Shown: positions 6,239 to 64,000 of the stretch, in pieces | How the letters are laid out: each line of letters opens with the position of its first letter | Numbering within the stretch: position 1 is the first letter of the stretch | Notes under the pieces: generated by a model | Seen by the model: the letters and a program-made list of their open reading frames with translations, nothing else | Database searches by the model: none | What the model was told of the DNA's origin: nothing | DNA from: a virus | Length of the DNA stretch: 64,000 nt | Virus record (IMG/VR): IMGVR_UViG_3300012973_000014 | Coordinates: 22-64,021 of that record | Reading direction: 5' to 3' (one strand) | Position numbers and translations under genes: made by a program

Positions 6239-6284
6239 GCCGTTTTTGTTTGCAAATTTACATAAATTAATCGGAAAACCCACC

Positions 6285-28637: not shown

Positions 28638-28736
28638 CCTATTAACTTTGTAAGAAAATTTGAGATATGACACTATTGTTTATTATATGGGGAATCGCGT
28701 ATTTCTGCGAGGAACTGATAAATGGAGGTAAATAGT

Positions 28737-29498
28737 ATGGTTTACGCGTATTATCGTTATTCTACAGGCAAGCAGACTGAGATGCAACAGGAGCATAGAG
28801 TTCGGGAATACTGCCATAACCGAGGCATAACTATCGACGCTGTGGTTATAGATAGAGCCGTAAGTGGAGCCATATCTATAGAAAACAGGAATCTCGCAGC
28901 GCTGATTGGAAAGATGAAGCCGGGGGATACATTGATTGTTTCAGAGGTATCACGTATATCCCGTTCTATTGGGGACTTCTGCGAGTTTATATTGGTTGCC
29001 ATGCCTAAGCTTAAAGCGAGGCTAATCGTCTGCAGTATGGGTCTGGATATAGATTGTGCTAATATGTCCGGTATGACGCAGATGCAGCTGATGATGTTTT
29101 CATGCTTCGCTCAGATAGAGCGAGAGCTTATTACGGACCGTATTCAGGCGGCAATAGACGCTCGCAAGGAAGCCGCTAAGGTTAACGGTGGTTGGACATC
29201 CAAGTCCGGCAATTACTGCACTCATTTGGGACGGGATTCGTTCAACGACCCTTCAGCAGCCGGTAAGAAATCGGCATTCAACAAGAAGAAGAAGTTTATG
29301 AAGGGTATGCGCCCGGTAGCGGAGCATATAAGGTTATTAAAAAGCACTACAGATTTGGATAATCTACGAATAGCTATTGCCCTTAATAATGCCGGATTCA
29401 GAACTGGCAACGGAGGTAAGTTCCATCATTCACATATACCTAAAATACTGAAATATGACGAAGAAGGTATCTATTACGAAGAAGCAGACTTCATGTAA
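28737..29498 (+). CDS. small serine recombinase (resolvase/invertase family)
   Basis: 'VYAYYRYSTGKQ' catalytic Ser motif, 'SEVSRISRS', C-terminal HTH. Start placed at the Met before the motif (ORF track 28722). Confidence 0.75.
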   Translation: MVYAYYRYSTGKQTEMQQEHRVREYCHNRGITIDAVVIDRAVSGAISIENRNLAALIGKMKPGDTLIVSEVSRISRSIGDFCEFILVAMPKLKARLIVCSMGLDIDCANMSGMTQMQLMMFSCFAQIERELITDRIQAAIDARKEAAKVNGGWTSKSGNYCTHLGRDSFNDPSAAGKKSAFNKKKKFMKGMRPVAEHIRLLKSTTDLDNLRIAIALNNAGFRTGNGGKFHHSHIPKILKYDEEGIYYEEADFM

Positions 29499-38506: not shown

Positions 38507-38742
38507 TTAACTCTTACTTTTATAACTTGCTTCAAACTATCGTTTTCTATTTGTAGAGAATCATTTTGCTCACTAAGAGAATCATTTTGCTCACTAAGAG
38601 AATCAACTTGTTTCTCTAATTCTTTCACTTTTCTATCCATCTCCTCATTCCTATTCCCCACATACACCTTTCCCTTGATTTTCTTCTTAAGTTCTTCAAG
38701 TGAAGGTAACTTTTTCAGCTTTTTCCTTTGCTTTTTCGCCAT
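38503..38742 (-). CDS. small coiled-coil protein with an in-frame 21-bp tandem repeat
   Basis: 'DSLSEQNDSLSEQNDSL'. The DNA 'aagagaatcattttgctcact' is duplicated at 38559-38600. Confidence 0.4.
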   Translation of the reverse strand: MAKKQRKKLKKLPSLEELKKKIKGKVYVGNRNEEMDRKVKELEKQVDSLSEQNDSLSEQNDSLQIENDSLKQVIKVRVK

Positions 38743-42858: not shown

Positions 42859-45800
42859 TTATGCCCTCCTATATTGTGCTAATTCTTGTTCTAATTGATT
42901 AACTTTTTCTCTTAATAGTTGCACCTCAGTCTTAACTCCTTTAACCTCTCTCGCAACGGAAATGCCTATACCAACTGCCAAAGCACCATAATCAAGATGG
43001 TAGAAGTCTTTATTGGTTGTATTAACAGCATCCTTGAACTGAGTATCCAACCAATACTGAGCAGATGTACCTAAGTGTTGTTCCTTATCATCTCTGTCAG
43101 TCCATTTGAATGTAAACAACGGAGCATTGACTATTGTTTCAAGGTCTATCTGCTTGTATGAGGTAATATCCTTGTAGCGGATATCCGAACCAAATGCACC
43201 ACCACCTGTGGCCACAAGATTGCCGTTCCCATCTATATAAGCAATATCTGTATTAACGCCATTGGCTGACCGGTAGAATGTTAGTCCTTTTGTTGTTTGG
43301 GCATAAAGACCATAATCCCAATAGTCATCACTTTCTGTTCTTCTTAAAAATTTGAGTTTTCTTGAAATACTTGATGTTCCTGTAGTATCGTTTAGTATAA
43401 TATCTCCATTTGTATGTATATTAGAACTTACTGTAAGGGTATGCGACATTGTTACATCTCCAGACTGAGCAATCACAACACCTATTCCAGCATTTGCACT
43501 ACCACTATTAGGCCTTAGATATATACCTTCAGCAGCATATATACCGAGACCTCCAGCACTTGATAAGCCTATTCTCGCTAAATGACTGCTTCCGAATAAA
43601 ATTCCAACATCATTAAAAGCACTGCTACTCGCATTGTTTAGTACAAGTCCGTTACTTACATTAAGAGACTTAATAGTTCCTGTCCCATAATAATCAATCT
43701 TAAAAGCTGTAGTCCACCCTCCGTAATTATGCTGCAAATACCAATCTCCTCCGCTAACAAAGGTTTTCCAATCAAAAGTGGTAGTATAATCATCAATAGC
43801 TCCTCGTTGAAAAATCAAAGCTGGAGAATCTCCACTCTCTGAATAAAGAGTTAAATCACCTGTGGCGTAATTTACTAATGCTTTAGGAGCATACCATAAA
43901 CTATTACTCTTATTAGTTAGCACAATGGGCCTATTGATATTATCTGTACCAGCTTGACAAAGAACTGTATTTACCGTAGGAATATCAGCAGCCACCAATG
44001 CTCTAAATGTAGCAGCCCCATTGCCACCATTTGGGGCTGCAAGGACAGTATTCGCTGTTCTTGAAACACTCGCATCATACCAAGAAATAGTTTCCCAGAT
44101 AGGTGCTCCTGTACCAGAACTTCTTAAAAATTGACCGCTACTTCCTTTTGTTATAGGTGCATAAATATCAAATGTTGTTGGAGTGTTGGTTGTACCAGCT
44201 ATATTCCACGATGTGCCATTAACAGTGGCGGTTCTTGCATATACCCCCAAAGCCTCCTTTGTAAGATTTCCGCTATCGTATATCTTATATTGCTTTCCTG
44301 CTGAGAGGTTGTAGTGATATAAATTATCAGCATTTGTTCTTATGACAGTTTTATGAGCAGAAGAACCGACAGCCACAACAGCTTCACCAGATACGCCTGT
44401 CCAAGTATTTGAAGCACTTAAAGGAGCAAGAATACCATTGCCAGCATTATCATATATGCCAATATTACCGCTTGTAATATTTAGATTTCCTGTTATTGTA
44501 CCTCCTGTAAGCTGTAAATACCTATTATCTACAGTGGTTGAATAATTCCCAGTATGTAATACTTCCCAAGTTCTAGGAATACTAGACGCACTATTACAAT
44601 ACCATAACTTGCCATCATTACCTAACATTAACGCTTTATCTGATTGTATGTTTGTAATAAACACGCCAAAAGCTGCAGCAGAGTTATGCCCTATTAGGGA
44701 CGTATTTACTCCTTTAGTCCTAAATGAAAGGGTAGTGCCTATTGTTCCGTCGGTATCTAAAAATAAAGCCTCACGACTAGTACCATCTTTTACAGTACCA
44801 CCAGACAATTTTAGATATCTATTATCAGTAGTAGTTGAATAGTTACCTTCATGGATAATAGCATTAGCATTAAAAGATAGCCAGTCTTTATATATAACAA
44901 CGCCATTCGTGCTTCTTTCTCCTAAAGTAACATTACCTCTTAAATAAATATTACCAACAGAATACACTCCTATCCCTCCACTAGAATCTGTACCTATTCT
45001 CGCTTGTTCTACGCTATTTAAGGTTCTAATAAAAGACAATGCTGTCTTATCATAAGCAGCATCTGTTCCCGATGAAAGAGTTAGAGGACCTGTAAGAGTG
45101 CCACCACTCAACGGCAAATACCCTGCTAATTTACTATCAAGAGTAACACCATTTTGATAAATGGTAGTTGCATTGAGAGTGCCGTTGACGTCTAACTTAT
45201 AACCATTATCATCAGTAGTGCCTATAAGGACATTGCCATCTTGTGTAATTTGCATTAAATCAGATGCACTTGTTACCCCTCCTCTAAATCTCAAACTACC
45301 TGAATTTGACGCAGAAATACCCCACATCCCTGCATCATACCCATATGAATTTACAGTGGCTAACCATATACTTGCCACATTTGAAACACTAACTTGGTTA
45401 ATTCTTATGCCTTGAGTGTATGAATTTACATTATCTTCTGTTATATGTAAACAACCATTAACTGCAGCACTACCATCAAAACTCTGACCCCAAATGGTTC
45501 TTGCAGTTTGTAGTTTGGTTGCACTACCAGCATTGTATGAGCCTATGTTGCCAGAGTGTATGAGAGTGTTAGTATTATATACAGGAGTACCATCATCTTT
45601 TATGCTCAAATATGATGAAGAAGCAAAGCTATATAGATATGTTCCAATGCTACTATCCCATCCCATCTCAACTTTGTTTGCACTCTTACACTCTATGCGC
45701 ATTGCAACTGCATATGTAGTTGCATTTGAGTTAATTACTAAAGGAGTAATAGCACTGTTATTACTAATCGTTCCCCCACTCAAAGGCAAATACTTCCCAC

Positions 45801-48800
45801 TCAAATCTGGGATATGGCTACTATGGATTGTCTGAGTGCCACTCGCACCCAAGATATTCCATAGCTGTGTTTCATCAATACCTCCACCGCTCGGCACATC
45901 TCCACCGCCACCAGAGCCTTTACCGAATGCACCGCCACCATCAACTATAAGGTTCAATGTCGTATGAACCGCTTTATTCTCCTCGTCATAAGACCACAGT
46001 TTTCGCAATTCATTGACATACTCCAGAATACTACCAAGTGTTGCATCTACATCTCCACTAATCTTTATGGCGCCGCCCAGTGTAATCACACCATCCTTAT
46101 CCCAACTTATGTCTCCACCGGCAACGCTACCAGCTCCATCCTTATCCCAAGTGATATTACCCCCGGCAAGGTATCCGGAGCCATCAAACCTGAATAGAGA
46201 CTGAGCATATTTTGCAAGCGTATTGTCAGCTTCAATATCAGCCATAGGACCACCGTACCATGCAGCTATGCCACCACCCTTCTTGGTTGCATCGTATAAT
46301 CCATTGGTTCCACTCATGACGTTGAATACACCATTTTCGGTATAACCAAGCATCAAGAGTGAAGATTGTATCAGACCGCCCTCTGTAATCGTGCTTTCTC
46401 CTAAAGCTCTGCGTAGGTAGTCATAACCAGCAATCAAATCACTTGCATCCTCAAAAGCTTCTTTCGCTTTATCTTCTGCATATTTTTTTGCTTCCTTAAG
46501 ATTCTTCTCAGCCTGTTCTATACGAGCCTTTTCCTCTTCTGTTACAATTCCGTCCGCGTATGCTCTTGTTTTCTCATCAGCTAGTGCAATTGCGGCATCT
46601 GCAGCTTTCTGAGCAGCATCAATAGCATCTTGCTCCGCTCTGGTTATCTGCTTGTCAGCTTCTGCCTTCGAATAAACATCATCTATATTAGCTTTAGCTT
46701 TTTCAAGTTCACTAATTGTATCCTGTATGGCAATTTTCGCGTCATCTGTATATTTTTCACTTGCAGCCTTAGTATCAGAAATACTCTTATCTAAAGCCGT
46801 CTTGGTTGTAAGTATACTCTCCTCCAATTCAGCTTTAACGGCGTCACTATACGCATGAGAATCATCAGCCAAAGCCCAATCACTAGCAGCATAGCTACCA
46901 TTCTCGCCTTTAGCTTTCACGCATCGTTTCAACGGACTATTTTCTCCTCCGGCCCAAAGGTCTCCCAAGTCATAGGGAGGATAAGGCGTATCAATGAATA
47001 CTCTACGTTTGCCGTCAGCCGTATCCAGAGCCTTCTGGGCGAGTTCTAGAGCTTTAACTACTTCTGAATCCTCTATTACAGCCCAATAATAACCATCAGC
47101 CAAGGTATACTGAAACCTGAAAGCCTTACCATCATTAGTATAAAACAAGTCTCCAAGATGAGAATCCTTATCAGTATCCGTTACCCAGTCTGAAGCGGGA
47201 TAATTGTTCAATGTAGGAACCTCCTCGCCAAACCAAGTATCAATAGCTCCATCCATCTCGTTACGGATATTCTCAAACTCCTTAGTAACCTGCTCTACAA
47301 ACTCCTCATAACCCTCCGGTGTAGCCTCATTGATAGCCTGTTCCAAATCTCGTCCGTCACTCAGTTTAGTCCCAACTTCCAAGCGACCTTTTACTTGAAG
47401 AACACCGTTCTCATACTTAATGTACTGAGTCTGCTCTCTATCTCCTATATAACCAGCGCCATACACCTGAAGCCAAGTCTTACCACCAACACGACCTATA
47501 TTTACACTATCTTTGTTAGAAAGTGTAAAATCAGTTATATCATCATACCAAGTGACCAGACCGCCGCCATCATGTGTCTCATCAATCATCAGAGCTGCTT
47601 GTCTTGACTTGTCAGCACTGTTACCCAACTGCGCGATATTATCACCTACAACAGGGTCAAACGAACCCTGCATACGGTCGGTTTTGCTTATATCAATATA
47701 ATCTGCCCCAATTGCAGTAACACGAGCCCAATACTGACGTATACCGGCATCGGTGAACCTTTGAGAGAATGCACCATCATTTACCGCAAAATAATTACGG
47801 ACAGTACCGTTCTTAGTATCAAAGTAACACCTCCAGCTTGTCCCGGCATCTTCCACTCTACTTACGACCATACCCGCTGCAGAGAAAACTTGCTTGCCGG
47901 CGCTGTAAGAAACTTGATTGATAACAACTTCATTAAACCTTGCTCCTATACGACCGACAAGAACATCAGCCTCAATAACTCTGTTTCCATCATCGTCGGT
48001 ATACACGCCAAAACCTTGACCTTGGATATCTCCGGCACGGAACCCTTTATCGGCGATTCCTTCACCTAACTTTATATTCTTTTTAAACTCCGTAGGAGAG
48101 TAAGACACATCAGCAATACCATCTTTGCGTACAAATGTACTACTCAAAGAACGCACAGCTTCCTGTACTGCGCTTCTATTGCTATATACCCTTTGAGTCA
48201 GCACATTTACTTGACCTTCCAAAACCTCCACCGGATTACCGCTGGCAACAACAAGGTCGGAGAGTGTCAAATTCCACTCTGGATTGAGAGAATTGGCGTT
48301 ATAACGCTTAGTTAATGATTGAATATATAGTGAGATATACGAATCCCCAATAAGAGCAACATTTCGAACCCTTATCTTAGCTCCTGCTTTAATCTTGTCA
48401 ACCTCTCCGAATGAGCTACAGAATATCTTACTCGGAGTAATTGTAAATGATGGGAACTCCTCATCCTTCATCGCCAGCTGCTCTTCCAAGTAAGCATTGA
48501 GACGAGCCTCCGCATCATACACATACGGGTCATAAGGCATAGAGATATTGATAAAGAAGAAGTGGTCTCCGGGCTTAGCGTTCTGTTGAGTATTAGGAAG
48601 ATAGGTGTTAGACGCCTCCAATTCAGCCTCAGACTTCTGAAGCGTTAGCCTCCAGCCTCCTTCGATAGGTTTAATTGCAGTAGTAATGACTTGGTATAAG
48701 TTATCCGAATCAGAACTGAAACCTACAATTCTGAACTCATAATCTTCGCCGGCAAGTAATCCATCAGAGAACATTACCGTCATATCCTCACTGACCGCAC

Positions 48801-50463
48801 GAGGCTCCCAAACCCTATAAGTATAATCCTCATCAGACTCATCAGCATTGCGAGCAATACCCCACACATCGCGTATCTCGATATCAAATGTCTCCTTCCA
48901 TTCACCTTTATCTGTTGCTCGGGCATACTCTTTAACTGTGGCTCCAGTCAACCTTGTATCAACATTTACCACCACATCACTAGCCGTAGGGTCGTACTCA
49001 GCCCTCTGTATATTGGCACTCCACACAACATTAGCCTTAAAGCGATAATCGCCGGAAGGAATATCATCCAATTCCCAAAGGTAAGAATCAGTATCAGAGA
49101 TAGTTTGCGTGCGGACAACCTCACCAGTAACACTGTTAGCAAAATCTACAAGTTGCAACTCGGCTGAGCTGCGAACAGTACTGGTAGCACCAAACTCTAC
49201 CGGCACAGGAAAACCGTCATCTCCGATATATGAAGGCGACATAGTAATACGAATCTGCGCAGTGTTGATAGGATTCGTCACTTGGAAGCGGTCAGTAAAG
49301 ATAGTGAACTCTATACCACCACGACAATCCTCAAGATAGTTATTTTTTGGACTATTGCCGCACTTACCTGAAGACGACTCCTGCCCTGCAGCGTCTATGC
49401 CGATAGCAATGGTATTCTGCGGCTCCTTCACTCCGTCAACCAACACTTTCTCCACCGCAAGAACCTCATCTAGCCTAACACCGTTACGAGTAGCACCTTG
49501 CAGTGTCGGGAATATCTTCTCATTAGGTTCTATTGCACCATAAGAAATACCCCACAAGTCCTCCTTATCCGACAAAGCATAATCTATCGGAGCTATATGC
49601 CTTCCAGCAGCCTTATCCGATACACCCTGATTATAAGCCCAAGTACCTGAACCGGAACCTGCATTGTAACCGCGAACATAATCACGATATACCTTAGGCA
49701 TCAAATTCTTAAAGAAAACAGCCTGTAAGGAAGAGTTGGTATCCGGGTCGCCAGCATGGAAATAATCCGGCGGTAAGTTTTTCTCGGAACCACGGCCCCT
49801 CAAACGTGTGATAATACGCTCAAGAGGATTGTTTCGTTCCACGCTAACTAAACCATTATCCTTGCCGTACTCAAATACATGCTCTATTTCTATTTCCTGA
49901 AAGCCTACCTGAATCTGTAGCACATTACCGGCACTGCGGATAACCCATCGTACACCGTACATCTCATAAACCTTGATAAGCACGTCCCAAAGCGTAGCAT
50001 TATCAAAAGATATTGAGATAGCATTACCATCTTCGGTATAATCCTGAGGCAGTACCATTCGCCACCTATCACCCATATAATGGCGCAAGTTAAGATTGAA
50101 GCGGTCTACAAACTCAGAAAGGGTAGCATACAAAGGAACATTGTATGAACTAGGCTGCGGATTGCCACTACCAAGCTCTACAAAATCCATAAAGGTATAC
50201 CTTTTCAAATCCTCACGCTCCGATTTGAATACAAGGGTATATGTCGTAGAGAGCGAAGATGTATCCTTCTTACCGGTAGGTTTGCGCACCCCAAGGTAAA
50301 ACTTCTCGCCGTTATACACCACATACCAGTCTGGGTGGAAATCCTGTTCCTCGCTAAAAGAAACAGTAGCTGATATAGAACTCTCGCCCATATCAGCATC
50401 ATTAAACTCAAACACACTGATAAGCTTGAGCTTCTCGTTTTTCTCGTTGTATAATGTAATCAT
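42859..50463 (-). CDS. giant tail fibre / tail-tip protein (2534 aa) with phage-fibre repeats and C-terminal S74-type intramolecular chaperone domain
   Basis: 4 or more repeats of 'YLPLSGGT(I/L)TG.L' (Phage_fiber_2-like). C-terminal 'GSDIRYKDI...' matches the SDxRxK autoproteolytic chaperone signature. Long coiled coil mid-protein. Confidence 0.75.
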   Translation of the reverse strand: MITLYNEKNEKLKLISVFEFNDADMGESSISATVSFSEEQDFHPDWYVVYNGEKFYLGVRKPTGKKDTSSLSTTYTLVFKSEREDLKRYTFMDFVELGSGNPQPSSYNVPLYATLSEFVDRFNLNLRHYMGDRWRMVLPQDYTEDGNAISISFDNATLWDVLIKVYEMYGVRWVIRSAGNVLQIQVGFQEIEIEHVFEYGKDNGLVSVERNNPLERIITRLRGRGSEKNLPPDYFHAGDPDTNSSLQAVFFKNLMPKVYRDYVRGYNAGSGSGTWAYNQGVSDKAAGRHIAPIDYALSDKEDLWGISYGAIEPNEKIFPTLQGATRNGVRLDEVLAVEKVLVDGVKEPQNTIAIGIDAAGQESSSGKCGNSPKNNYLEDCRGGIEFTIFTDRFQVTNPINTAQIRITMSPSYIGDDGFPVPVEFGATSTVRSSAELQLVDFANSVTGEVVRTQTISDTDSYLWELDDIPSGDYRFKANVVWSANIQRAEYDPTASDVVVNVDTRLTGATVKEYARATDKGEWKETFDIEIRDVWGIARNADESDEDYTYRVWEPRAVSEDMTVMFSDGLLAGEDYEFRIVGFSSDSDNLYQVITTAIKPIEGGWRLTLQKSEAELEASNTYLPNTQQNAKPGDHFFFINISMPYDPYVYDAEARLNAYLEEQLAMKDEEFPSFTITPSKIFCSSFGEVDKIKAGAKIRVRNVALIGDSYISLYIQSLTKRYNANSLNPEWNLTLSDLVVASGNPVEVLEGQVNVLTQRVYSNRSAVQEAVRSLSSTFVRKDGIADVSYSPTEFKKNIKLGEGIADKGFRAGDIQGQGFGVYTDDDGNRVIEADVLVGRIGARFNEVVINQVSYSAGKQVFSAAGMVVSRVEDAGTSWRCYFDTKNGTVRNYFAVNDGAFSQRFTDAGIRQYWARVTAIGADYIDISKTDRMQGSFDPVVGDNIAQLGNSADKSRQAALMIDETHDGGGLVTWYDDITDFTLSNKDSVNIGRVGGKTWLQVYGAGYIGDREQTQYIKYENGVLQVKGRLEVGTKLSDGRDLEQAINEATPEGYEEFVEQVTKEFENIRNEMDGAIDTWFGEEVPTLNNYPASDWVTDTDKDSHLGDLFYTNDGKAFRFQYTLADGYYWAVIEDSEVVKALELAQKALDTADGKRRVFIDTPYPPYDLGDLWAGGENSPLKRCVKAKGENGSYAASDWALADDSHAYSDAVKAELEESILTTKTALDKSISDTKAASEKYTDDAKIAIQDTISELEKAKANIDDVYSKAEADKQITRAEQDAIDAAQKAADAAIALADEKTRAYADGIVTEEEKARIEQAEKNLKEAKKYAEDKAKEAFEDASDLIAGYDYLRRALGESTITEGGLIQSSLLMLGYTENGVFNVMSGTNGLYDATKKGGGIAAWYGGPMADIEADNTLAKYAQSLFRFDGSGYLAGGNITWDKDGAGSVAGGDISWDKDGVITLGGAIKISGDVDATLGSILEYVNELRKLWSYDEENKAVHTTLNLIVDGGGAFGKGSGGGGDVPSGGGIDETQLWNILGASGTQTIHSSHIPDLSGKYLPLSGGTISNNSAITPLVINSNATTYAVAMRIECKSANKVEMGWDSSIGTYLYSFASSSYLSIKDDGTPVYNTNTLIHSGNIGSYNAGSATKLQTARTIWGQSFDGSAAVNGCLHITEDNVNSYTQGIRINQVSVSNVASIWLATVNSYGYDAGMWGISASNSGSLRFRGGVTSASDLMQITQDGNVLIGTTDDNGYKLDVNGTLNATTIYQNGVTLDSKLAGYLPLSGGTLTGPLTLSSGTDAAYDKTALSFIRTLNSVEQARIGTDSSGGIGVYSVGNIYLRGNVTLGERSTNGVVIYKDWLSFNANAIIHEGNYSTTTDNRYLKLSGGTVKDGTSREALFLDTDGTIGTTLSFRTKGVNTSLIGHNSAAAFGVFITNIQSDKALMLGNDGKLWYCNSASSIPRTWEVLHTGNYSTTVDNRYLQLTGGTITGNLNITSGNIGIYDNAGNGILAPLSASNTWTGVSGEAVVAVGSSAHKTVIRTNADNLYHYNLSAGKQYKIYDSGNLTKEALGVYARTATVNGTSWNIAGTTNTPTTFDIYAPITKGSSGQFLRSSGTGAPIWETISWYDASVSRTANTVLAAPNGGNGAATFRALVAADIPTVNTVLCQAGTDNINRPIVLTNKSNSLWYAPKALVNYATGDLTLYSESGDSPALIFQRGAIDDYTTTFDWKTFVSGGDWYLQHNYGGWTTAFKIDYYGTGTIKSLNVSNGLVLNNASSSAFNDVGILFGSSHLARIGLSSAGGLGIYAAEGIYLRPNSGSANAGIGVVIAQSGDVTMSHTLTVSSNIHTNGDIILNDTTGTSSISRKLKFLRRTESDDYWDYGLYAQTTKGLTFYRSANGVNTDIAYIDGNGNLVATGGGAFGSDIRYKDITSYKQIDLETIVNAPLFTFKWTDRDDKEQHLGTSAQYWLDTQFKDAVNTTNKDFYHLDYGALAVGIGISVAREVKGVKTEVQLLREKVNQLEQELAQYRRA

Positions 50464-51490: not shown

Positions 51491-54400
51491 TTAATTGGAT
51501 AATCTGGTATTCACCACTTTGCGTGACGAAGTGCCAGCAGTAGAGATTATAGAGTCAATCTTGCCGTTTAGAGTCTGGAGTTGTGATACCGTGTTACCAG
51601 TATTGGCGTTAATCGCCTGCAACTGGCTCAGCGACTGCTGTTGCAATGTCACAAGTTGTCCGACATTGAATCCGTTATCCCCGCCAGTCGCCGGAGCAAC
51701 CGCCGCAGCCTTACCCTCAAGGATAGCCCTGATAGCAGCCACGTCATCCTTAATCCATACCTGATAATACAAGATGGAGTTGGCATAACCAGCAAGAGTA
51801 AGCACTGTCTCCTCTGACGCCTGAGCAACACCCTTGGCGATACCGGTGAGATTACTTGTATCTTGCTCCCCTAACTGACTACGTAACCCAAGCATCTCAG
51901 CCAAATGAGTCAAGTCCTCATCAATAAACTCGATAGCCTTGTTACCCATATCCATGATACTCTGCCATTCAGCCGGAGTGAGCTCAGCATCCTCATAAGC
52001 CTTATCAATAGCTGCGAAGACTGGCTCCAACCTTTTCTGCACCAGCTTGGCCATCATAGAGTTCTGGACCATAGTCTTCATCATATCTTTGAATGAAGCT
52101 TTGAGAGCACCCATAGTATCATCAAACGACAGATAAGCATCCAACCACGATTGTGCGAAATCTTTTGCGGCGTCAGGGAGTCCGGTTCCAACCATTTCCT
52201 CAGTTACACTGCGTTGCAACTCTCGTATTTGCTTCTGAGCATCAAGAATCTTGTCGGTGTAATCCTCAATAGCATCATCATCCCTCTTCTTGCCTTTACT
52301 CTGCTCAGCGGCTCTCTGTTTCTCAAACGCGGAAATCTGACTCTGAAGGTTAGCAATTTGTTGTTGCTGATTCCTTATCCAATCAGTGCCCACCAATCCT
52401 TCCTGAACCTCCTCAAGTCGCTCATAAGCGCGCTCAAGGCCTTTCAATAGCTTCTCCTGCCTCTCAATTTCCTTATTAGCAGCACGAACTTTCTTGTTAG
52501 AAAACCAGTTAATAGCAGCAAAGGCGGCGCCTAAAGCTAACCCGACAGCCAACAAAGGAGCCATCTCTGCCTCAAGAATAGCCACTACGGCAACCATAGC
52601 TGACAATACAGACGTCATAGTACTAAATCCAGCCTGAAAAGCTTTAATAGCCTCTTCTGTTTCAGGAGAGAATGCTATACCCAGCGATTCCGCTACTCCG
52701 GTTGCTGCATCAATAACACCATTGATAGCTGACTCCACTTTCTGAGACCTCTGCTGAATAACTCCAAGTGACTTCTCTAAATTATCCATAGCAGCAGCCT
52801 TGGCGACCTTGTCACCTTTCTTTATCGCATCGATGAGATTTTTCCAAGCATCCTTAAACTCTACAATAGGTTGCTTATCGAATTTAATATTCCTGAGCTT
52901 TTCAATCAAATCCACAAGCGACTTGAGATTAGTGGCATCAAACTGTCCCGACGCAAGCATCCCTTGCAGTTCAGTAAGCATCTGCTCCACCACATCCACC
53001 GCAACTGCATCAAGGTTTTCCAATTCCTTGGCAAATCTTTCCTGAAAATCAGTAAGGTCAAGCTTCGCAAATTCCTGATTATACTTACGCTGAATAGCAG
53101 CTACAGCATCAGCAATATAAGCATTCCATTCGGCTTGGTCAACGCCATCTGGAGCCTTAAGCTTAGTCACAGCGTCCATTTCTGATTGCATTTGCTGCCC
53201 CAATAGCTTTACTTGTGTATCAAAATCCCCGAACTTATCAATAGTCTTGAATAGACTCTCAACTTGCTGCTTATTAAAATCAACAAACGAAGCTAAGGCT
53301 TCTTTAAACTTAGGCTGGACATCTTTAGGAAGTGCATCCGCCAATGATTGCAACTTCCGTACGCTAATCTCACCATTACTGATAGCCTCTTCCAAATCAG
53401 AAGCATTCCAGTCTCCGGTCAAATCTATCTCAGTCGCAATGGCAGCTTTCGTAGGTTCGTTAGAAACAAGAATCTCAGACAACTGTCTCGACAATAACTG
53501 TCCCACATTCCCACTCTGTAACTCTACGCCAGTCACACCTAATGTAAGATTTGTAGACAATTCTACATCACCTGTAAGACCCAACATCTTTTCAAAGAAC
53601 TCAGAAGCATCACGTTGCTGCCTTATCTGACCTGAAAGTTTATCAAGCGCAGCTTCAAGTTTTTCCTTAGCAGTTGCAAGGTCTACATCTTGAATTTTAA
53701 GAGCAATCTGCATAGCAAGACTATCATCCTTCAAATCCTGAGCCTTCTTAAGCATCTGCTGCAATCTCGCCTTGAAAGCAGCCGGGTCAAGGAAATCCAC
53801 ATCAGTAAGATTACCGTAAATCTCCTCAATATCAGCTTTAGCAGCTTCATCCGACATTAGTCTACGCAACTCGCCATATCTCTTATAAATCTTCTCTACA
53901 AGAGAGAGCTCAGATTTGAGATTATCAAGAGGAGTGGTGTCTACCTTGCCGCCAGTCTGAAGAGAGAACCCAGCAAACTTAGCATAACTCTCAGCATTCT
54001 TAATTATCTGTTGCTGAGTAGCCAACTGCTTCTGATAAGCCTCGACATTCTTACGAACTTCATCCGTCTGCTTTTGACTCTTTGCAGAAGCAATAGCATC
54101 TTGATATTCTTTTGCCCTATCGGTAGCATCTTTCCACGCATCGCGAGTTTCTTTGATAGTATCGGAAAAATTCAACGCAGCAAGCTCAGCATCCTTTAGA
54201 TTACCAGCCTTCATAAATTTATTATACTCCTTTCGCCATAAAAGTTGAGCGGCAGCAGCGTCATCTGTAGCCTTCTTAAGAGCCTCTAATTCACGATTAT
54301 ACCCAGCTAAATCCTTCTCTAACCCTTCAATCTTTTTCTCTTCAGCCTCCATCATGGCATTCCATATACGTTGCTGGTCAACATCACTGGTAGAGTCTCT

Positions 54401-56377
54401 TCTCTCCTGCCATGATATCAAATTCCGCTTAGCAGTGGCTATCAAAGCTTCAGTATTAGACTTCTTAGCCTTTATAGCCTCTACCTCATTATCTCTCATA
54501 GCTTGAGTAACATTACCCCATGCGTCTGCAAGTTGCTGGACAGTAGCTTTTTCCGAGTCTACAGCCGACAATAATTCTGGACTCAAGGCTTTCAATTCCT
54601 CTATCGCCGCAACACGCTTCTTAGTAGCCTCTGTTACAGCATTCTGCCTCTCCTCATCAGTTTTATATTGAGAAAAAAGTTCTGGATAAATACGCTTCAA
54701 ATCAGAAAGAGATTTATCTTGAGTCTTAAGGAGTATGTCGTATTCCTTGATTTTTTTAATAATACGCTCATAACTTTTATCAGCATCCAGTAAAGGTTTC
54801 TGAATCTCCTCTACCGACTTAGCTACCCTCTTGTTAGACTCTGCTGAAGAAGAAAGAGTCTCCTTATACTTGTTCCACAGGGTAATTGAACCAGCCAAAA
54901 TTGCAGCAGTACCCGTAAACACTGCTATTAATGGATTCGCAATCAATGCAGCTTGAATCTTATAAAGAGAACGGGCAAAAACATTGTTAGCAGCAGCAGC
55001 TTTCAATAACGCCAAACTGTATCTATCATTAGCGACTCTCGCTTTATGTACTAAAGCGGCATGTAAATGAGCAGCCCTATTAGTCCTATCCATAGATGCT
55101 TTTAAGGACATTTCTGCCTTTTGTAATAAAGCCGTTGAAATAGCAGTACGGCTAGTGAGAGTACCTCCGAGTTTTACAGCAATAGCATACGCGCCCCAAG
55201 TAGCCAGCAACGGGTTTAACGAAGCAGCAACAATATCCAGATTCTTTGCGAGAAATGTAGCAGCCTTACCAAAAGTAACAAGGAACCCCATATTACTCTG
55301 ACCAATCTCATCAAAGGAGTTCTGAATATTATCAGCCAAGTTCTCATAAATACCATATACTGACTCTGCCAACTTCTTCTGCATCTCGTAGAATCGTCCA
55401 CCTTCTGCAGTCATCTCTTTGAAGATATCAGCAACCATCTCAAACGGAACCTGACGGGTAGAGATAAGGTCAAACACCTCTCCGGTGCTCACTACTTCTC
55501 CACGCAACTGACTAAATTTCTTAGCCAACTCATCCACAAGCGGAATACCAGCCTCAGTAAACTGCCTAAGCTCAGTACCACGCAATACCGAAGCCGCCTT
55601 AACCTGACCATAAGCTAAGATTAGCCTATCCATACTTACGCCCAATCCGGCAGATACGTCCGCCAGCATATTCATAGTACCATACAACTGCTCATTTTCT
55701 ATACGATATGCAGCGAGTTGTTTTGTGTAAGTCACCAAATCCTTAGTACTAAAAGGAGATTCAGTTGCACTCACCTTAATTTTCGCAAACAAAGCGTCTG
55801 CAAAAGCAGCATCCTGAGTAATAGCCCTCAATGATACTCTCTGTTTCTCAAATTCAAGAGTTAGGTCTTTGATATTGTTCAACAACCTATAACCTCCTAG
55901 CAAACTCAAATAAGAGTTAGTGAACTGCTTAAGTCCATTGAGAACGCCAGACTGAGTTCGATAAGCTTGAGTTTGACGATTCGTCGCAGATATTCCTCGC
56001 TCTTGAGCAGTAGCCAACGATAACAGCCTCTTCTCTTTTAATGCAGCAGCAGCAGCAGTTTTTTCCATCTCTGTTCTCTTACGCTGCTCCTCAATAGCCG
56101 CCTTTTTATTCACGAGAATCATTCGTTCAGCGTGTAGATTCTGCTCTCGTAAAGCTCTACCAGCAGTCAACTTAGTACCAGAGCCTTTTTGCAACTGCTG
56201 TATTTCCTTTAACTGGTCACGTATCTTATCCAACCCTTCAACGCCTTCAAGTTTTATTTTAAAGGCGCTATCGTCAATCATTTTTTGAATATCCTTTTCC
56301 TTATCCTCCCACTCTTTTTTTAGGGCATCCATATCTATCCCTAATCGTAAGCCAAATTCCAAATTATCATTAGCCAT
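51491..56377 (-). CDS. tail tape measure protein
   Basis: 1628 aa. Extensive coiled coil, internal hydrophobic segments. Position after the chaperone genes. Confidence 0.75.
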   Translation of the reverse strand: MANDNLEFGLRLGIDMDALKKEWEDKEKDIQKMIDDSAFKIKLEGVEGLDKIRDQLKEIQQLQKGSGTKLTAGRALREQNLHAERMILVNKKAAIEEQRKRTEMEKTAAAAALKEKRLLSLATAQERGISATNRQTQAYRTQSGVLNGLKQFTNSYLSLLGGYRLLNNIKDLTLEFEKQRVSLRAITQDAAFADALFAKIKVSATESPFSTKDLVTYTKQLAAYRIENEQLYGTMNMLADVSAGLGVSMDRLILAYGQVKAASVLRGTELRQFTEAGIPLVDELAKKFSQLRGEVVSTGEVFDLISTRQVPFEMVADIFKEMTAEGGRFYEMQKKLAESVYGIYENLADNIQNSFDEIGQSNMGFLVTFGKAATFLAKNLDIVAASLNPLLATWGAYAIAVKLGGTLTSRTAISTALLQKAEMSLKASMDRTNRAAHLHAALVHKARVANDRYSLALLKAAAANNVFARSLYKIQAALIANPLIAVFTGTAAILAGSITLWNKYKETLSSSAESNKRVAKSVEEIQKPLLDADKSYERIIKKIKEYDILLKTQDKSLSDLKRIYPELFSQYKTDEERQNAVTEATKKRVAAIEELKALSPELLSAVDSEKATVQQLADAWGNVTQAMRDNEVEAIKAKKSNTEALIATAKRNLISWQERRDSTSDVDQQRIWNAMMEAEEKKIEGLEKDLAGYNRELEALKKATDDAAAAQLLWRKEYNKFMKAGNLKDAELAALNFSDTIKETRDAWKDATDRAKEYQDAIASAKSQKQTDEVRKNVEAYQKQLATQQQIIKNAESYAKFAGFSLQTGGKVDTTPLDNLKSELSLVEKIYKRYGELRRLMSDEAAKADIEEIYGNLTDVDFLDPAAFKARLQQMLKKAQDLKDDSLAMQIALKIQDVDLATAKEKLEAALDKLSGQIRQQRDASEFFEKMLGLTGDVELSTNLTLGVTGVELQSGNVGQLLSRQLSEILVSNEPTKAAIATEIDLTGDWNASDLEEAISNGEISVRKLQSLADALPKDVQPKFKEALASFVDFNKQQVESLFKTIDKFGDFDTQVKLLGQQMQSEMDAVTKLKAPDGVDQAEWNAYIADAVAAIQRKYNQEFAKLDLTDFQERFAKELENLDAVAVDVVEQMLTELQGMLASGQFDATNLKSLVDLIEKLRNIKFDKQPIVEFKDAWKNLIDAIKKGDKVAKAAAMDNLEKSLGVIQQRSQKVESAINGVIDAATGVAESLGIAFSPETEEAIKAFQAGFSTMTSVLSAMVAVVAILEAEMAPLLAVGLALGAAFAAINWFSNKKVRAANKEIERQEKLLKGLERAYERLEEVQEGLVGTDWIRNQQQQIANLQSQISAFEKQRAAEQSKGKKRDDDAIEDYTDKILDAQKQIRELQRSVTEEMVGTGLPDAAKDFAQSWLDAYLSFDDTMGALKASFKDMMKTMVQNSMMAKLVQKRLEPVFAAIDKAYEDAELTPAEWQSIMDMGNKAIEFIDEDLTHLAEMLGLRSQLGEQDTSNLTGIAKGVAQASEETVLTLAGYANSILYYQVWIKDDVAAIRAILEGKAAAVAPATGGDNGFNVGQLVTLQQQSLSQLQAINANTGNTVSQLQTLNGKIDSIISTAGTSSRKVVNTRLSN

Positions 56378-59058: not shown

Positions 59059-59418
59059 TTACCAGAAAAGTGATTGGTCCATAATTATCGGAGCATAAGC
59101 CTCAGTCACCTCTTCGCCCCATTTAGCGCGAAGTTGCGCCGCCTTAGCGCTCCAAGCTGAGCGGTCCTGTTGCGAGGTTTGCAGGTTAGCCGTAGTGATA
59201 CTCCTATCGCCAATCTGTTTGCGGTAAGCACCGCCATTTACCAGACCGGCAGCAGAGTCCCACATCATAGCCTCTGCCAAGTCACGCTCTTTTTCGGGAA
59301 CATCAAAAGCAGGGGTCCCCGGCTCAATTTTGTAGAAACCTAAAGCTCTCGCCACAATCCTATCCGGGAAAGTGTAGTTAGGTAAAACTTGTAGATAATC
59401 TTCAATCAATAGTGCCAT
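59059..59418 (-). CDS. head-tail adaptor candidate
   Basis: 119 aa. Immediately after the MCP gene. Confidence 0.35.
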   Translation of the reverse strand: MALLIEDYLQVLPNYTFPDRIVARALGFYKIEPGTPAFDVPEKERDLAEAMMWDSAAGLVNGGAYRKQIGDRSITTANLQTSQQDRSAWSAKAAQLRAKWGEEVTEAYAPIIMDQSLFW

Positions 59419-59435
59419 AACCCCTGCGTTTTAAA

Positions 59436-60545
59436 TTACGATTCAACAGCCTGTGTATCCAAAGACACAATCTTCCTTGGGTCTTTGAATGAAGGGAATG
59501 TCCAAGACTCCATGTTGGTTACAACCTCAATAGGGTCTGAACCGAATATCTCAATAGCACCAATCAAACCACCCTCAAATGTAGTTTTTACAGTCGCAGG
59601 GTTCTGGTCCTTCAAGTAGTCTGAAGGTGAGTTGTGCATATTAAACAACTTAGAAGTAGGGATAAGAGAAACCTTATTCTCATTGAATTTAGCAGAATCC
59701 AATGTAGGAACGCCGTCAATCTCAATCCTGCTCTTCTCGTCAATAGCAACCATTGGAGGAAGACCCAACGCTCTAAGGCCAGCAAGAATCTCGTTATCAG
59801 TCAAGATAGCAAGAGTACTGTTCATCAAAGGCATACGAGCCTTTATAGCCTCAATAACACCAGCGTCAGCAAGAATCTTATCGTATAGAGATTTTGCAAC
59901 AACAAATACTCTGTCTGATGACATATTAACATCGTCATCATCAGCACGTTTGCTCATTTTACGAAGGTCACCTATGATGTCATAACCACCATCTGCTGCA
60001 AACCACTTAGCTTTGGAAGCTTTAAGCTTATTCTTAGCAGGAGTACGAAGGTCAATGGTATAAGCCAATTTGCCCTGATTGTACAGTTTAATGGTCTGGT
60101 CTGACAAACCTTGGAAAATCCAATCATTCCATGTAGCATGGAAACCACCAATAATCATATTGGCACGGTTAATGTATTTCTTAACCATCTCGGCAGCCAT
60201 ATCTACATTAACGAGGTTCATCTCCTCAATAGCATTCAAGTCAGACTGGTCAACTTTGAAACCATGACCAATTTTATGGATAGAGTCGCTGTAGCTCTGT
60301 CCACCCTCTACTGAGCGCAAAGGTTTCTTACCCATAGAGCCAAGCACTGAAGCTTTAACAACGATACCGGTCTCCTCAACGATAGTAGAGAACTTCTTAC
60401 TACGTGAAGCAGGAAGAACCTCTGTGAAAGCTCTCCAAAGAGAGTTATTATACTTACTGTTTACAGTATCAAGCATGTACTGCAACTCGCCCTGATTACC
60501 GGGAACACCCACGAGGGCCTGATAAACTGATAGATGTCTTTCCAT
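59436..60545 (-). CDS. major capsid protein
   Basis: 369 aa. Position after scaffold and decoration genes. Composition typical of HK97-fold MCPs. Confidence 0.6.
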   Translation of the reverse strand: MERHLSVYQALVGVPGNQGELQYMLDTVNSKYNNSLWRAFTEVLPASRSKKFSTIVEETGIVVKASVLGSMGKKPLRSVEGGQSYSDSIHKIGHGFKVDQSDLNAIEEMNLVNVDMAAEMVKKYINRANMIIGGFHATWNDWIFQGLSDQTIKLYNQGKLAYTIDLRTPAKNKLKASKAKWFAADGGYDIIGDLRKMSKRADDDDVNMSSDRVFVVAKSLYDKILADAGVIEAIKARMPLMNSTLAILTDNEILAGLRALGLPPMVAIDEKSRIEIDGVPTLDSAKFNENKVSLIPTSKLFNMHNSPSDYLKDQNPATVKTTFEGGLIGAIEIFGSDPIEVVTNMESWTFPSFKDPRKIVSLDTQAVES

Positions 60546-60558
60546 ATCTTATTCCTCC

Positions 60559-61218
60559 TTACTCTCTAGAATTAGAATATCTTACATAAACATCATTCTC
60601 CCTCATATACTGACGGACTGCAGGAGCGATAGGCGGAACCCTTCTAGTAAGAAGAACGCCGTCAACCTGAGCGAACAGTGCATCCACACCCCACATATTG
60701 ATAGCGTTAGGGTCTTTTACAACATCGTAGAAAAGGAATGCGTTAGGAAGAACTTTAATTTTTGCTGAATCAGCGCTGGCTGCATCAGCTTCCACCAAGA
60801 TAGTACCGGCCTCAAGAGTACCAAGAGTAGGGATAGTCAATACATCATACTCCTCATTAGACCTGTCAACAGCAGTAATAGCAACTGCCTTGCCTGTACC
60901 ATCAATAGTCGCTGGCATAACCATGATAGCCATGCCGGCTCTTGCTCTTGAACCCTCAAAGCCTTTCTTGACTCTGACAGCAGTAGTTGTACCACCAGCT
61001 ACAACCTCAAAAGCATAGTGAACTTTAATAGTTCTTGCATCTGGAGCATCATCAACAGCAACCGGAGTACCAGCAGGAACGAAACCATTGGCAACCTCTG
61101 GAAGAGTAGCCAAGTCTACATCGTACTGTCCGCTAGTAACACCTTTTACTGTACCTGTGAACACGACTCTTGCTCCACCGTAGTTTCTAGAGGCTCGTGT
61201 CATCTGATAATTCTGCAT
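60559..61218 (-). CDS. head decoration protein candidate
   Basis: 219 aa. A/G/V/T-rich. Lambda-like order scaffold, decoration, MCP. Confidence 0.4.
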   Translation of the reverse strand: MQNYQMTRASRNYGGARVVFTGTVKGVTSGQYDVDLATLPEVANGFVPAGTPVAVDDAPDARTIKVHYAFEVVAGGTTTAVRVKKGFEGSRARAGMAIMVMPATIDGTGKAVAITAVDRSNEEYDVLTIPTLGTLEAGTILVEADAASADSAKIKVLPNAFLFYDVVKDPNAINMWGVDALFAQVDGVLLTRRVPPIAPAVRQYMRENDVYVRYSNSRE

Positions 61219-61245
61219 AATACGAATCTGTTTTTAATTAATACT

Positions 61246-61983
61246 TTATTTATCAAGGCCGAGAGCGGCTTTCACTCCACTCTGACCGCTTTCTTGCGAT
61301 TTATTCGCATTATCCACCAATGCCTTAAATCCGGCAGATGCGCTGCCATCACCAATATTTGACTCAAGAGGTTTAGTATTAACACCGAACATCTCCGCCA
61401 ATTCATGAAACTTCTTATACGCAGCATCATGCAACTGGTCAGCAGTAGCGTCATTACCCAAGTCTTTCTGTACAAACAGCATTGCTTGGTCAAAGACTTT
61501 CAACTGCTGCTGAGAGAAATTCAAACCAGCTCTTTTCTCGCTAAGTTGTGCAGCTCTGGCTTTTACACTATTCTCCTGCTCCAACTGTGCAATCTTTGCA
61601 GTCAAAGGTGAAAGGGCAGCCTCCATACTAGCTTTCTGTGTCTCAGAAATCTGTTTTAGGAAATCCTCCATATTAAAAGGCTGTGGTGTAGGTGCTGGCT
61701 CAACAGGCTTAGGAGCCGGGGTAGGCTCTGTAGGTTTAGGAGGCTGATAATTCTTTACAAAATCTGTAGTGTCTTTGATATAGTTCTTATTCATAGACTC
61801 AATGGTCTTGAAAGCAAACTTATCAACAAAGTCAGCCAACTCCATCTCTTCACCAGCAATAGGCAGTAACGACTCAAGGGTCTCTTTAACCGTTCTGTCA
61901 CTAACCTGAAGAGATGTCTTCCCTTCAGCGTTCATAAATTTTGCCTTGATGGCTTCAAGGACTTGTTCAATAGTAAACTTCAT
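61246..61983 (-). CDS. scaffolding protein
   Basis: 245 aa. Helical, Pro-rich linker 'PPKPTEPTPAPKPVEPAPTPQP', coiled coil. Confidence 0.5.
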   Translation of the reverse strand: MKFTIEQVLEAIKAKFMNAEGKTSLQVSDRTVKETLESLLPIAGEEMELADFVDKFAFKTIESMNKNYIKDTTDFVKNYQPPKPTEPTPAPKPVEPAPTPQPFNMEDFLKQISETQKASMEAALSPLTAKIAQLEQENSVKARAAQLSEKRAGLNFSQQQLKVFDQAMLFVQKDLGNDATADQLHDAAYKKFHELAEMFGVNTKPLESNIGDGSASAGFKALVDNANKSQESGQSGVKAALGLDK

Positions 61984-62075
61984 AGTGTCTCTATGTTTTA
62001 TTAAAAAAAAAAGAGCCGGTCATCCCCGTCGGGACAATCGGCTCAAAGGCTCTATATGTATAATGGTAAAAAAGT

Positions 62076-62258
62076 CTATTTATTCCAAGTTTCTAGTATC
62101 GTCACCATCTTGCAATGCTTACAGAATATCGCTATTGACGCGCCACCACGAATATCCATAATCTGCACTGGTAACTTCTTGCCACAATTTCCACAGGTCA
62201 CTTGCTCTGTAAAAACCATTTCCAAAACTTTCTTTGCTTCCATAATGCAAATATACAA
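62076..62258 (-). CDS. small zinc-ribbon protein (uncertain)
   Basis: 60 aa. 'CGNCG...CKHC'. Lies between divergent operons. Confidence 0.25.
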   Translation of the reverse strand: MYICIMEAKKVLEMVFTEQVTCGNCGKKLPVQIMDIRGGASIAIFCKHCKMVTILETWNK

Positions 62259-62306
62259 AGAGTTTCGTAAAATACAAATTCATTGTATATTTGTAAAAAT
62301 TTTATT

Positions 62307-64000
62307 ATGAGGCTTAGATTCAAAGACCCTAAAAAGATACCAGAAAAGTACCCTACCGTAGTAAGGCAAGACCCAACTATGGATGACCCCGGCTTCGTGG
62401 AAGTCGGCGGATACCGTCTGCGCCCCAATGTAGACCTGATACCACAAAGGGGGATGCAGGAGGAGTTGTCACACTCCGACTGTAACCTTATATTTCTAAC
62501 TGGCTCGGCAACAGGAGGCAAGATGCAACCGTATGACGCAGATATAATTACCCCAAGTGGTATAAGAAAGATGGGAGACCTTCAAGTAGGTGATATTATA
62601 TCGTCGGTGGACGGAAATATGCAAACTGTGGAAGAAATCTACGAGCATGGAATGCAGGATGTGTATGAGGTAATATTTGATGATGGGCGCAAGACAGAGT
62701 GCGGACTTGAGCATCTCTGGGAAGTAAGTATAAAACGTAATTCTTGGACTAACTACTCAGAATGGACTACTATAACAGCGAGAGAGATGTTTGACGAGTT
62801 CGACAAAGGACATGGTATAGTAATTCCCTACTGTAACCCAGTTCAGTTTGCTCAAAACAAAGAACTTCCTATTGGTCCATATACCTTGGGATGTATCTTA
62901 GGAGACGCATATTTCAATCCTTATCATGTCCCTATTCTATTCAGTGAACATTCAGACATGTTAGATAAAGTTAAAGCAGAAGGTTACTTATGCAAAGAAT
63001 ACCCTTCTGCGCCAAGATATTTCCATATACAAGGTAGGGATATTCGCAATGCTATAAAAGCAGTAGGTTTGCACGGAAAGCATTCTTGGGATAAATTCGT
63101 ACCCGATATCTTCAAATACACATCAGTGGAAAACAGGCTTGCACTTATACAAGGGCTTATGGATACCGATGGTACAGTATCTGGAAAATGGAAGGAAAGT
63201 ACTTTTAGTACCGTAAGTGGACAATTAGCTTTAGACTTACAATGGTTAATTAGGTCAATAGGAGGTAGGGCAACAGTAAAAAGACATAAAAATATACGAG
63301 GATATACTGACGGGAAAGACAATGCGCGAGACTACTACAAAGTCTGTATCAAAACTCCTTGCAATAAAAATCTTTACCATATAGCCTATAAAAAAGATAA
63401 AGCACTAGGGACTTACAGGAACGGCAAATGGCCGATGAGAAATAAAATAACAGGATACAGATACATCGGTAAAAAACAATGCCGTTGTATCCGCGTATCA
63501 TCCCCAGATAGGCTCTATCTTACCGATGATTTTATCGTAACGCACAACACTTTTGGTGGGCTTCTTGCATCCATGAAGGGTATAGGCAAACAAAACTACA
63601 CAGGCCGTATTATCACAATGCAATCTAAAGACGGCGAAGGAGGTACATCAATGGCTCGTGATGCAGAACAGATTTATGGTAGTTTTGCCGGATGTAAACT
63701 AAGTAAGAGCGGTGGTATTACAGCCGAATGGCCTCAATGGAATAACGCTATTAAGTTTATACACGTTAACTTTAATCCTGATAACCCAAAGGAATGGAAT
63801 GACTTCAAGCAACACGCGAAAGCTAATACAGCTATTTTCATGTACGGCGATGAAGCCTCGGGTATAGAGACTTGGAAGAAATTTGCATACTTGTTTTCCC
63901 GAAACCGTGACTCTTCTGGTGCGATGAGACCAAAGATGATAATATCGTTCAATCCAGAGCATGAACACTGGACCACAGCTTTCCTAAAGAGAGCAGGATA
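62307..64000 (+). CDS. terL: terminase large subunit, intein-containing (partial; continues past the window end)
   Basis: Read by hand; absent from the ORF track because no stop falls in the window. Walker A 'GSATGGK|T' is split by the intein. Walker B 'AIFMYGDEA'. Divergent from the head operon. Confidence 0.6.
   Translation, partial: MRLRFKDPKKIPEKYPTVVRQDPTMDDPGFVEVGGYRLRPNVDLIPQRGMQEELSHSDCNLIFLTGSATGGKMQPYDADIITPSGIRKMGDLQVGDIISSVDGNMQTVEEIYEHGMQDVYEVIFDDGRKTECGLEHLWEVSIKRNSWTNYSEWTTITAREMFDEFDKGHGIVIPYCNPVQFAQNKELPIGPYTLGCILGDAYFNPYHVPILFSEHSDMLDKVKAEGYLCKEYPSAPRYFHIQGRDIRNAIKAVGLHGKHSWDKFVPDIFKYTSVENRLALIQGLMDTDGTVSGKWKESTFSTVSGQLALDLQWLIRSIGGRATVKRHKNIRGYTDGKDNARDYYKVCIKTPCNKNLYHIAYKKDKALGTYRNGKWPMRNKITGYRYIGKKQCRCIRVSSPDRLYLTDDFIVTHNTFGGLLASMKGIGKQNYTGRIITMQSKDGEGGTSMARDAEQIYGSFAGCKLSKSGGITAEWPQWNNAIKFIHVNFNPDNPKEWNDFKQHAKANTAIFMYGDEASGIETWKKFAYLFSRNRDSSGAMRPKMIISFNPEHEHWTTAFLKRAG
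62523..63548 (+). mobile_element. intein (342 aa) with LAGLIDADG homing endonuclease, inserted in the TerL P-loop
   Basis: Hint N-block 'DADIITPSG...LQVGD.I.S.DG'. LAGLIDADG motifs 'LGCILGDAYF' and 'LIQGLMDTDGTV'. C-terminal 'FIVTHN' followed by +1 Thr. Splicing out restores GSATGGKT. Confidence 0.7.

Follow-up and report, generated by a model that had tools for sequence, protein, structure and literature searches.

Class 3 inteins are defined by the lack of an N-terminal nucleophile together with Trp B:12, Cys F:4, and Thr G:5 (the WCT triplet), with Thr or Ser as the usual +1 residue (PMC2807308, PMC3196547). Their presence in phage terminase large subunits (TerL), mostly in P-loops, was noted by Tori et al. 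2010 (PMC2807308). Kelley et al. 2016 (PMC5050341) called the Lys/Thr P-loop site (TerL1-a; here and below the slash marks the insertion point) a "classic" insertion, demonstrated splicing of TerL inteins and cleavage of intein-less alleles by two of them, assayed cleavage of the intein-less TerL site for the BAKA and Bethlehem TerL inteins, and listed the Bethlehem TerL1-c intein as class 3. A 2025 survey counted 287 class 3 inteins in actinobacteriophages, almost all of them in TerL and Cas4. Here, we describe an intein at the end of a 64,000-nucleotide (nt) stretch of DNA, positions 22 to 64,021 of the IMG/VR virus record IMGVR_UViG_3300012973_000014, referred to as the window. The gene starting at position 62307 is very probably the large terminase subunit of a tailed phage, with its Walker A motif split between Lys72 and Thr by a 342-amino-acid (aa) class 3 intein that carries a two-motif LAGLIDADG endonuclease. 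The source of this tailed phage is probably a gut or rumen community.

The class 3 prototype, the "MP-Be DnaB" intein (VSQDQ/P...THN/TKNTF, 341 aa), was located in gp11 of Mycobacterium phage Bethlehem (AY500153; positions 4261-6972 of locus L012), a protein of 904 aa annotated as hypothetical. Since this gene lies directly upstream of the portal gene, the prototype intein is also in a terminase. A search around the annotated DnaB-like gene of Bethlehem (33-52 kb) had not revealed it, and this gene, gp62 (273 aa), has no intein. The intein in the window resembles the prototype in size (342 versus 341 aa), in having the splicing domain split around a two-motif LAGLIDADG endonuclease, and in sharing His B:10, Trp B:12, Cys F:4, Thr G:5, the following His and Asn, Thr+1, and a non-nucleophilic residue 1. 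However, the identity is only 25-28%, and the prototype has Pro1, is inserted at VSQDQ/.../TKNTF, which is not a P-loop, and comes from an actinobacteriophage. The parts of the interrupted gene are as follows.

62307..62522, + strand: N-extein of TerL, 72 aa, ending in GSATGGK (62502-62522), the first part of Walker A
62523..63548, + strand: intein assigned to class 3, 342 aa and 1026 nt, Met1-Asn342 (Met73-Asn414 of the precursor), in frame with both exteins
62523..62720, + strand: N-terminal splicing lobe, blocks A and B, intein aa 1-66
62706-62720, + strand: LEHLW, with His64 (B:10) at 62712-62714 and Trp66 (B:12) at 62718-62720
62714..63458, + strand: linker plus LAGLIDADG homing-endonuclease cassette, intein aa about 65-312, with borders from blastn against contig L018 and from per-segment identities
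62886-62915, + strand: LAGLIDADG motif 1, LGCILGDAYF, with Asp128 at 62904-62906
63144-63179, + strand: LAGLIDADG motif 2, LIQGLMDTDGTV, with Asp216 at 63168-63170
63459..63548, + strand: C-terminal splicing lobe, blocks F and G, intein aa 313-342
63477-63497, + strand: QCRCIRV, with Cys322 (F:4) at 63486-63488
63540-63542, 63543-63545, and 63546-63548, + strand: Thr340 (G:5), His341, and Asn342 of block G
63549..64000, + strand: C-extein of TerL, first 150 aa, the gene continuing beyond the window; Thr+1 (63549-63551) completes Walker A
63831-63857, + strand: Walker B-like AIFMYGDEA within the C-extein, from the translation

Translation of the + strand from 62307 to 64000 gave 564 codons without a stop, open to the window end and identical to the sequence in the initial annotation, which had read a TerL frame from the ATG at 62307 with a 342-aa insert. 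The start codon is supported by the equal length (72 aa) of the N-exteins in the orthologues of Parabacteroides phage PF672P2 and of an IMG/VR contig (L009). The insert starts with MQPYDAD and ends with FIVTHN, the flanks being ...FLTGSATGGK / TFGGLLASMK..., and it directly follows an AAG (Lys) codon and directly precedes an ACT (Thr) codon. Once it is removed, the sequence across the junction is GSATGGKTFGG, containing a complete Walker A (GSATGGKT), a motif that is likewise unbroken in intein-free alleles (GSGTSGKT, GAATMGKT). The spliced 222-aa fragment matched PHROG 979 (terminase large subunit) in a single stretch spanning the junction (E=3.7e-16), a 580-aa full-length intein-free orthologue matched the same family (E=3.2e-31), and tblastn with the spliced fragment recovered annotated TerLs of Citrobacter, Hafnia, Methanoculleus, and Rhizobium phages. 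Both the proposed host gene and the proposed insertion point, inside Walker A between Lys and Thr, are thus upheld by the PHROG 979 match and by the GSATGGKT motif restored upon removal. In the sister contig L018, the TerL gene (protein P0066, 912 aa) is followed by a gene with Pfam SPP1_portal. A sequence search of the PDB with the TerL orthologue gave nothing useful, and megablast of 61900-64000 against GenBank phages gave no match, relatives being reachable at the protein level only.

The insert had been described from the sequence as a Hint and LAGLIDADG intein, and both profile and structural comparisons bear this out. Pfam LAGLIDADG_3 scored 26.6 bits (gathering cutoff, 22.5), Hint_2 matched weakly, and PHROG families of intein-bearing terminases covered the insert end to end (E=9e-25 and 5e-22). 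Weak NCBIfam matches to intein-containing RecA, GyrA, and DnaB models were driven by the endonuclease domain. An exhaustive HMMER search with the intein against 1.84 billion cluster representatives retrieved 15,967 at E<=1e-3 and 3,883 at E<=1e-30, and tblastn found matches in 663 GenBank phage records, including crAss-like, Bacteroides, Methanosarcina, and jumbo phages. To model the structure, the insert was aligned with 47 metagenomic relatives (48 sequences in total) and the alignment used as AlphaFold2 input, which gave a mean predicted local distance difference test (pLDDT) of 93.5 and a predicted template modeling score (pTM) of 0.92. The HINT splicing fold is formed in the model by the N- and C-terminal lobes, which also match domain I of PI-SceI. 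Against the PDB, Foldseek retrieved PI-SceI first (E=1e-15, template modeling [TM] score 0.68-0.73), followed by the TliVMA and PhoVMA inteins and PI-PfuI, with PI-SceI, PI-PfuI, and I-DmoI among the matches of the endonuclease part. The class 3 DnaB inteins of Mycobacterium smegmatis (6bs8) and M. chimaera (6rix/6riy) matched with TM scores of 0.77-0.80 over the target length through the two lobes, the endonuclease being an insertion, and class 3 DnaB inteins were also retrieved by sequence alone (E=3e-4 and 9e-4). The GC content of the intein (39% versus 42% in the window) is unremarkable.

The class 3 assignment is supported by the signature residues, by the predicted fold, and by homology to the prototype. 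BLASTP aligned the intein with the Bethlehem prototype over its full length (E=7e-19), with His64, Trp66, Cys322, and Thr340-His341-Asn342 matching prototype residues His65, Trp67, Cys320, and Thr339-His340-Asn341. Mutagenesis of the prototype showed that Cys320, His65, and Trp67 are essential for splicing, that Thr339 substitutions make it temperature dependent, and that the penultimate His has little effect (PMC2807308). With Thr+1, the signature in our intein is complete, in agreement with the likeness to class 3 (WCT) inteins pointed out in the initial annotation. A residue census over 176 full-length intein segments, taken from the best 140 proteins of the HMMER search, found His B:10, Cys F:4, and the C-terminal Asn in all 176, Trp B:12 in 175/176, and Thr G:5 in 173/176. 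The +1 residue was Thr in 119, Ser in 50, and Cys in 7 (Thr or Ser in 169/176), and Lys stood at -1 in 130/176. Residue 1 was the most variable junction position (Ala 107, Pro 24, Met 10, Leu 8, Gly 7, Phe 4, Ser 4, Glu 3, Cys 3, and others).

In our intein, residue 1 is Met (62523-62525), not a Cys, Ser, or Thr nucleophile, and it aligns with Ala, Glu, or Pro in relatives. The initial annotation was therefore right about a non-nucleophilic Met1, while its presentation as non-canonical does not stand, Met being the third commonest residue at this position. A mechanistic novelty was rejected for the same reason; since position 1 would have no chemical role, it can be Met, and as judged from these alignments Met1 is an ordinary variant at a chemically idle position. 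Could splicing then follow the route of class 1 or of class 2 (KlbA-type) inteins instead of passing through the block F cysteine? Class 2 inteins are also devoid of an N-terminal nucleophile. However, they have Ala1 and Cys+1 and no WCT triplet (PMC2807308), whereas this one has Met1, Thr+1, and the full triplet. Class 1 requires Cys, Ser, or Thr at position 1, and homology to the class 3 prototype extends over the full length of the element, so that either route appears extremely improbable.

The window is probably a metagenomic assembly, and its central intein cassette is unlike that of contig L018, both of which might suggest that the fusion is an artefact of assembly or sequencing. However, a Joint Genome Institute (JGI) metagenome contig (L017) is 100% identical to window positions 60554-62691, including the N-terminal junction, and because this contig is independent the fusion is no one-off sequencing error. 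Contigs L006 and L018 carry the junctions found in the window as well, and the insert is exactly 1026 nt long, in frame, and predicted to fold as a complete intein. An artefact is therefore hardly credible, and the sequencing error that the initial annotation had allowed for can be set aside.

Among described phages, a close system was found in Parabacteroides phages PF672P1 and PF672P2 (OP172819, OP172820), which have an orthologous TerL with syntenic upstream genes and, at the identical GK/T site, an intein with the class 3 signature. However, their intein has Ala1 and 365 aa and shares 37% identity with ours. The intein-bearing TerL of PF672P2 (WAX17163.1; positions 2764-5604 of locus L001) is annotated only as a hypothetical protein, as is that of PF672P1. 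Bacteroides phage BS-TP3 gp36 (positions 2414-4381 of locus L002), annotated as a terminase large subunit, contains a class 3 intein in a P-loop as well. The extein resembles a small P-loop ATPase, and DnaB is suggested by a note in the record itself. The TerL1-a inteins differ in residing in TerLs of the terminase_1 family, whereas the window's is in a PHROG 979-type TerL without Pfam match, and the phage lineages are different. M. smegmatis DnaBi1 (6bs8) and M. chimaera DnaB1 (6rix) share the splicing fold, the WCT triplet, and the insertion after the P-loop Lys, but they are mini-inteins without an endonuclease domain in bacterial DnaB. PI-SceI (the yeast VMA1 intein), the best overall structural match, likewise combines HINT and LAGLIDADG parts in one bifunctional element, but it is class 1 (Cys1), shares 13-15% identity, and has a eukaryotic host.

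Intein-free alleles at the GK/T site, a comparison that the initial annotation had proposed, were found in several TerL relatives, together with intein-bearing ones, giving the following series (identities are those of the exteins).

L005 (protein P0063), 73%: intein-free, GSGTSGK/TFGALL
L013, 76%: intein-free, 580-aa TerL on a 72.5-kb contig
P0064, 47%: intein-free
L007, L008, L015, and L016, 51%: intein-free
L018 (P0066) and L006 (P0065), 94-100%: intein with Met1
L009, about 50%: intein with Glu1, 344 aa, 41% intein identity
PF672P2, 35-45%: intein with Ala1, 365 aa

The contigs of the closest intein-free alleles, L013 (JAFZGJ010000147.1) and L014 (CALYTI010000059.1), had been binned into a Lachnospiraceae metagenome-assembled genome (water buffalo rectum) and a Bacteroidales one. 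These conflicting host hints are probably due to phage contigs being binned with bacterial genomes.

The closest relative, L018, has three upstream genes in common with the window, with the portal gene downstream, and its DNA is 90.2% identical to window positions 59305-62713 and 63459-64000. Between them, window positions 62714-63458 and L018 positions 3408-4152, both of 745 nt, have no blastn similarity. The same break was found in the protein when the window was compared with P0066.

N-extein: 70/72 identical residues
Intein aa 1-66: 64/66
Intein aa 67-312: 92/240 (38%)
Last 30 aa of the intein: 28/30
C-extein: 150/150

The two 745-nt blocks encode different LAGLIDADG domains, with motif 1 reading GDA in the window and GNG in L018, and the breakpoints, at block B (His64) and just before block F (aa 313), are the borders of the linker-plus-endonuclease module. 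Accelerated divergence was rejected, because it cannot explain why identity falls on either side from about 90% to the background level over a stretch of roughly 60 nt. The simplest reading of these sequences is that the cassette was replaced by recombination. The L018-type cassette was also seen independently in L006. For the window's own variant, no independent contig was found that spans the two cassette breakpoints. A search of IMG/VR for a donor of the window cassette gave a best match of 28% identity, and identities over the cassette did not exceed about 37% in the exhaustive protein search. Altogether, we hold it to be an evenly balanced question whether this intein's endonuclease part acts as a cassette that can be exchanged.

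The biochemistry of the class 3 prototype (PMC2807308, PMC5222942), from which we infer the splicing steps and their order, suggests how the element would work. The thiol of Cys322 (F:4) would attack the Lys72-Met1 bond, itself activated by His64 and Trp66, leaving the N-extein as a thioester branch on Cys322, from which it would be handed to the side chain of Thr+1. Asn342 would then cyclize with the assistance of His341, releasing the intein, and an O-to-N acyl shift would produce an ordinary Lys-Thr bond and restore GSATGGKT, so that the spliced TerL junction would read ...TGSATGGKTFGGLL... Unspliced TerL should not bind ATP, because Walker A is split by 342 residues; only the spliced protein would do so, and splicing would therefore be obligatory and have to be efficient for DNA packaging. 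During co-infection, the endonuclease would be expected to cut intein-free TerL alleles at the GK/T-coding site, and repair would then copy the intein in.

Non-splicing class 3-like inteins do exist (PMC3196547), and the element could be such an inactive relic, with TerL as a pseudogene, as in the "class 3" intein of Arthrobacter Arth_1007. However, the Arth_1007 relic lacks Cys F:4 and His B:10, both present here, and the TerL frame is intact across 564 codons. The C-extein is identical in the sister phage at 150/150 residues despite about 10% divergence of the DNA, which indicates purifying selection on TerL, and no second TerL was seen in the window. We consider a relic very unlikely.

Four points weigh against a spliced TerL with a working homing intein. 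First, no Pfam terminase model was matched by the spliced extein or by the 580-aa orthologue, so the TerL assignment rests on PHROG 979, the tblastn matches to annotated TerLs, and synteny. Second, the window stops 150 aa into the C-extein, and for the nuclease half of TerL there are only the relatives to go by. Third, splicing and DNA cleavage are ascribed to this element by analogy. Finally, motif 1 reads GDA, with an Ala that is unique among the 48 aligned sequences (GDG in 40/48), and the endonuclease activity could be impaired as a result.

This last point leads to the possibility that the intein still splices with a dead endonuclease, as a fixed, vertically inherited passenger that is no longer mobile. 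Besides the unusual motif 1, the GNG of the L018 cassette, in which the catalytic Asp has become Asn, shows that endonuclease decay does occur in the lineage. Around the insertion site, the known intein-free alleles match the window flanks at only 21-26/40 nt, and no close, recently invaded pair of alleles was found. On the other hand, Asp128 and Asp216, the catalytic acidic residues of both LAGLIDADG helices, are kept (48-sequence alignment), and the domain is predicted to fold with high confidence. The sporadic presence and absence of the intein among TerL relatives fits homing, and so would the swap of one endonuclease cassette for another intact one. We therefore regard an immobile passenger as the less probable state, though one to be taken seriously, and give about the same weight, a sizable minority chance, to the predicted endonuclease being inactive.

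Other observations concern the intein and its surroundings. The glycine codons of Walker A form an AGGAGG 4 nt 5' of the intein ATG, and positions 62513-62525 (AGGAGGCAAGATG) look like a textbook ribosome-binding site and start. Shine-Dalgarno-like sequences occur at about 10/28 genes of the window, including the major head gene (AAGGAGG), and the AGGAGG is absent before the intein start in the orthologous inteins of L009 and PF672P2. The motif may be a by-product of coding Gly-Gly-Lys-Met; internal initiation at 62523, if true, would give an intein plus C-extein product without the N-extein. An antisense open reading frame (ORF) at 62984-63322 (112 aa) was considered as an antisense endonuclease and rejected, since the + strand carries the endonuclease in frame. 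An 84-aa ORF (62056-62310, + strand) in the 324-nt divergent intergenic region upstream of TerL overlaps the TerL start by 4 nt (ATGA); it had no PHROG match and could be the small terminase subunit or a chance ORF. The upstream neighbors are as follows.

59436-60545, strand opposite to TerL: major head protein
51491-56377, strand opposite to TerL: tape measure protein
42859-50463, strand opposite to TerL: tail protein of 2534 aa

Elsewhere in the window, ORFs in 1697-4314, 9362-10870, and 28722-29498 encode a DNA methyltransferase, a primase, and a serine recombinase or invertase, respectively, and together with the tail protein they confirm a phage genome. The methyltransferase frame overlaps the next, helicase ORF by about 75 nt, and the recombinase or invertase possibly points to a temperate phage or to phase variation. 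The Rfam tRNA model matched 4418-4493 (+ strand) with 42.2 bits (gathering score, 29), and ARAGORN called no tRNA anywhere in the window. In that segment, the model is followed in the acceptor, D, and T arms, whereas 4 extra nt in the region of the anticodon arm prevented an anticodon from being read, and minimum-energy folding did not give a cloverleaf. At 38555-38605, apparently between genes, a 21-nt unit (AGAGAATCATTTTGCTCACTA) is perfectly repeated in tandem (2.4 copies).

A class 3 intein in a TerL P-loop is an arrangement known since 2010 and involves no new mechanism. Most catalogued inteins of this kind come from actinobacteriophages, whereas this one interrupts an essential packaging gene of a phage from outside that group. 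It is also of use for annotation, as the orthologue in cultured Parabacteroides phages is labeled hypothetical and gene callers and Pfam miss this TerL family. At a single site, the alleles are either intein-free or have Met, Glu, or Ala at residue 1, and such a series could be used to test the freedom of position 1 in class 3 splicing, and the near-identical pair of inteins with swapped cassettes is a ready-made system for studying endonuclease replacement and specificity change. If cassette exchange is general, a resident class 3 intein would be able to acquire a different endonuclease by recombination at its conserved splicing blocks. This could renew a decayed nuclease or alter its target while the intein stays at its site, and the familiar cycle of invasion, fixation, decay, and loss would gain an extra step.

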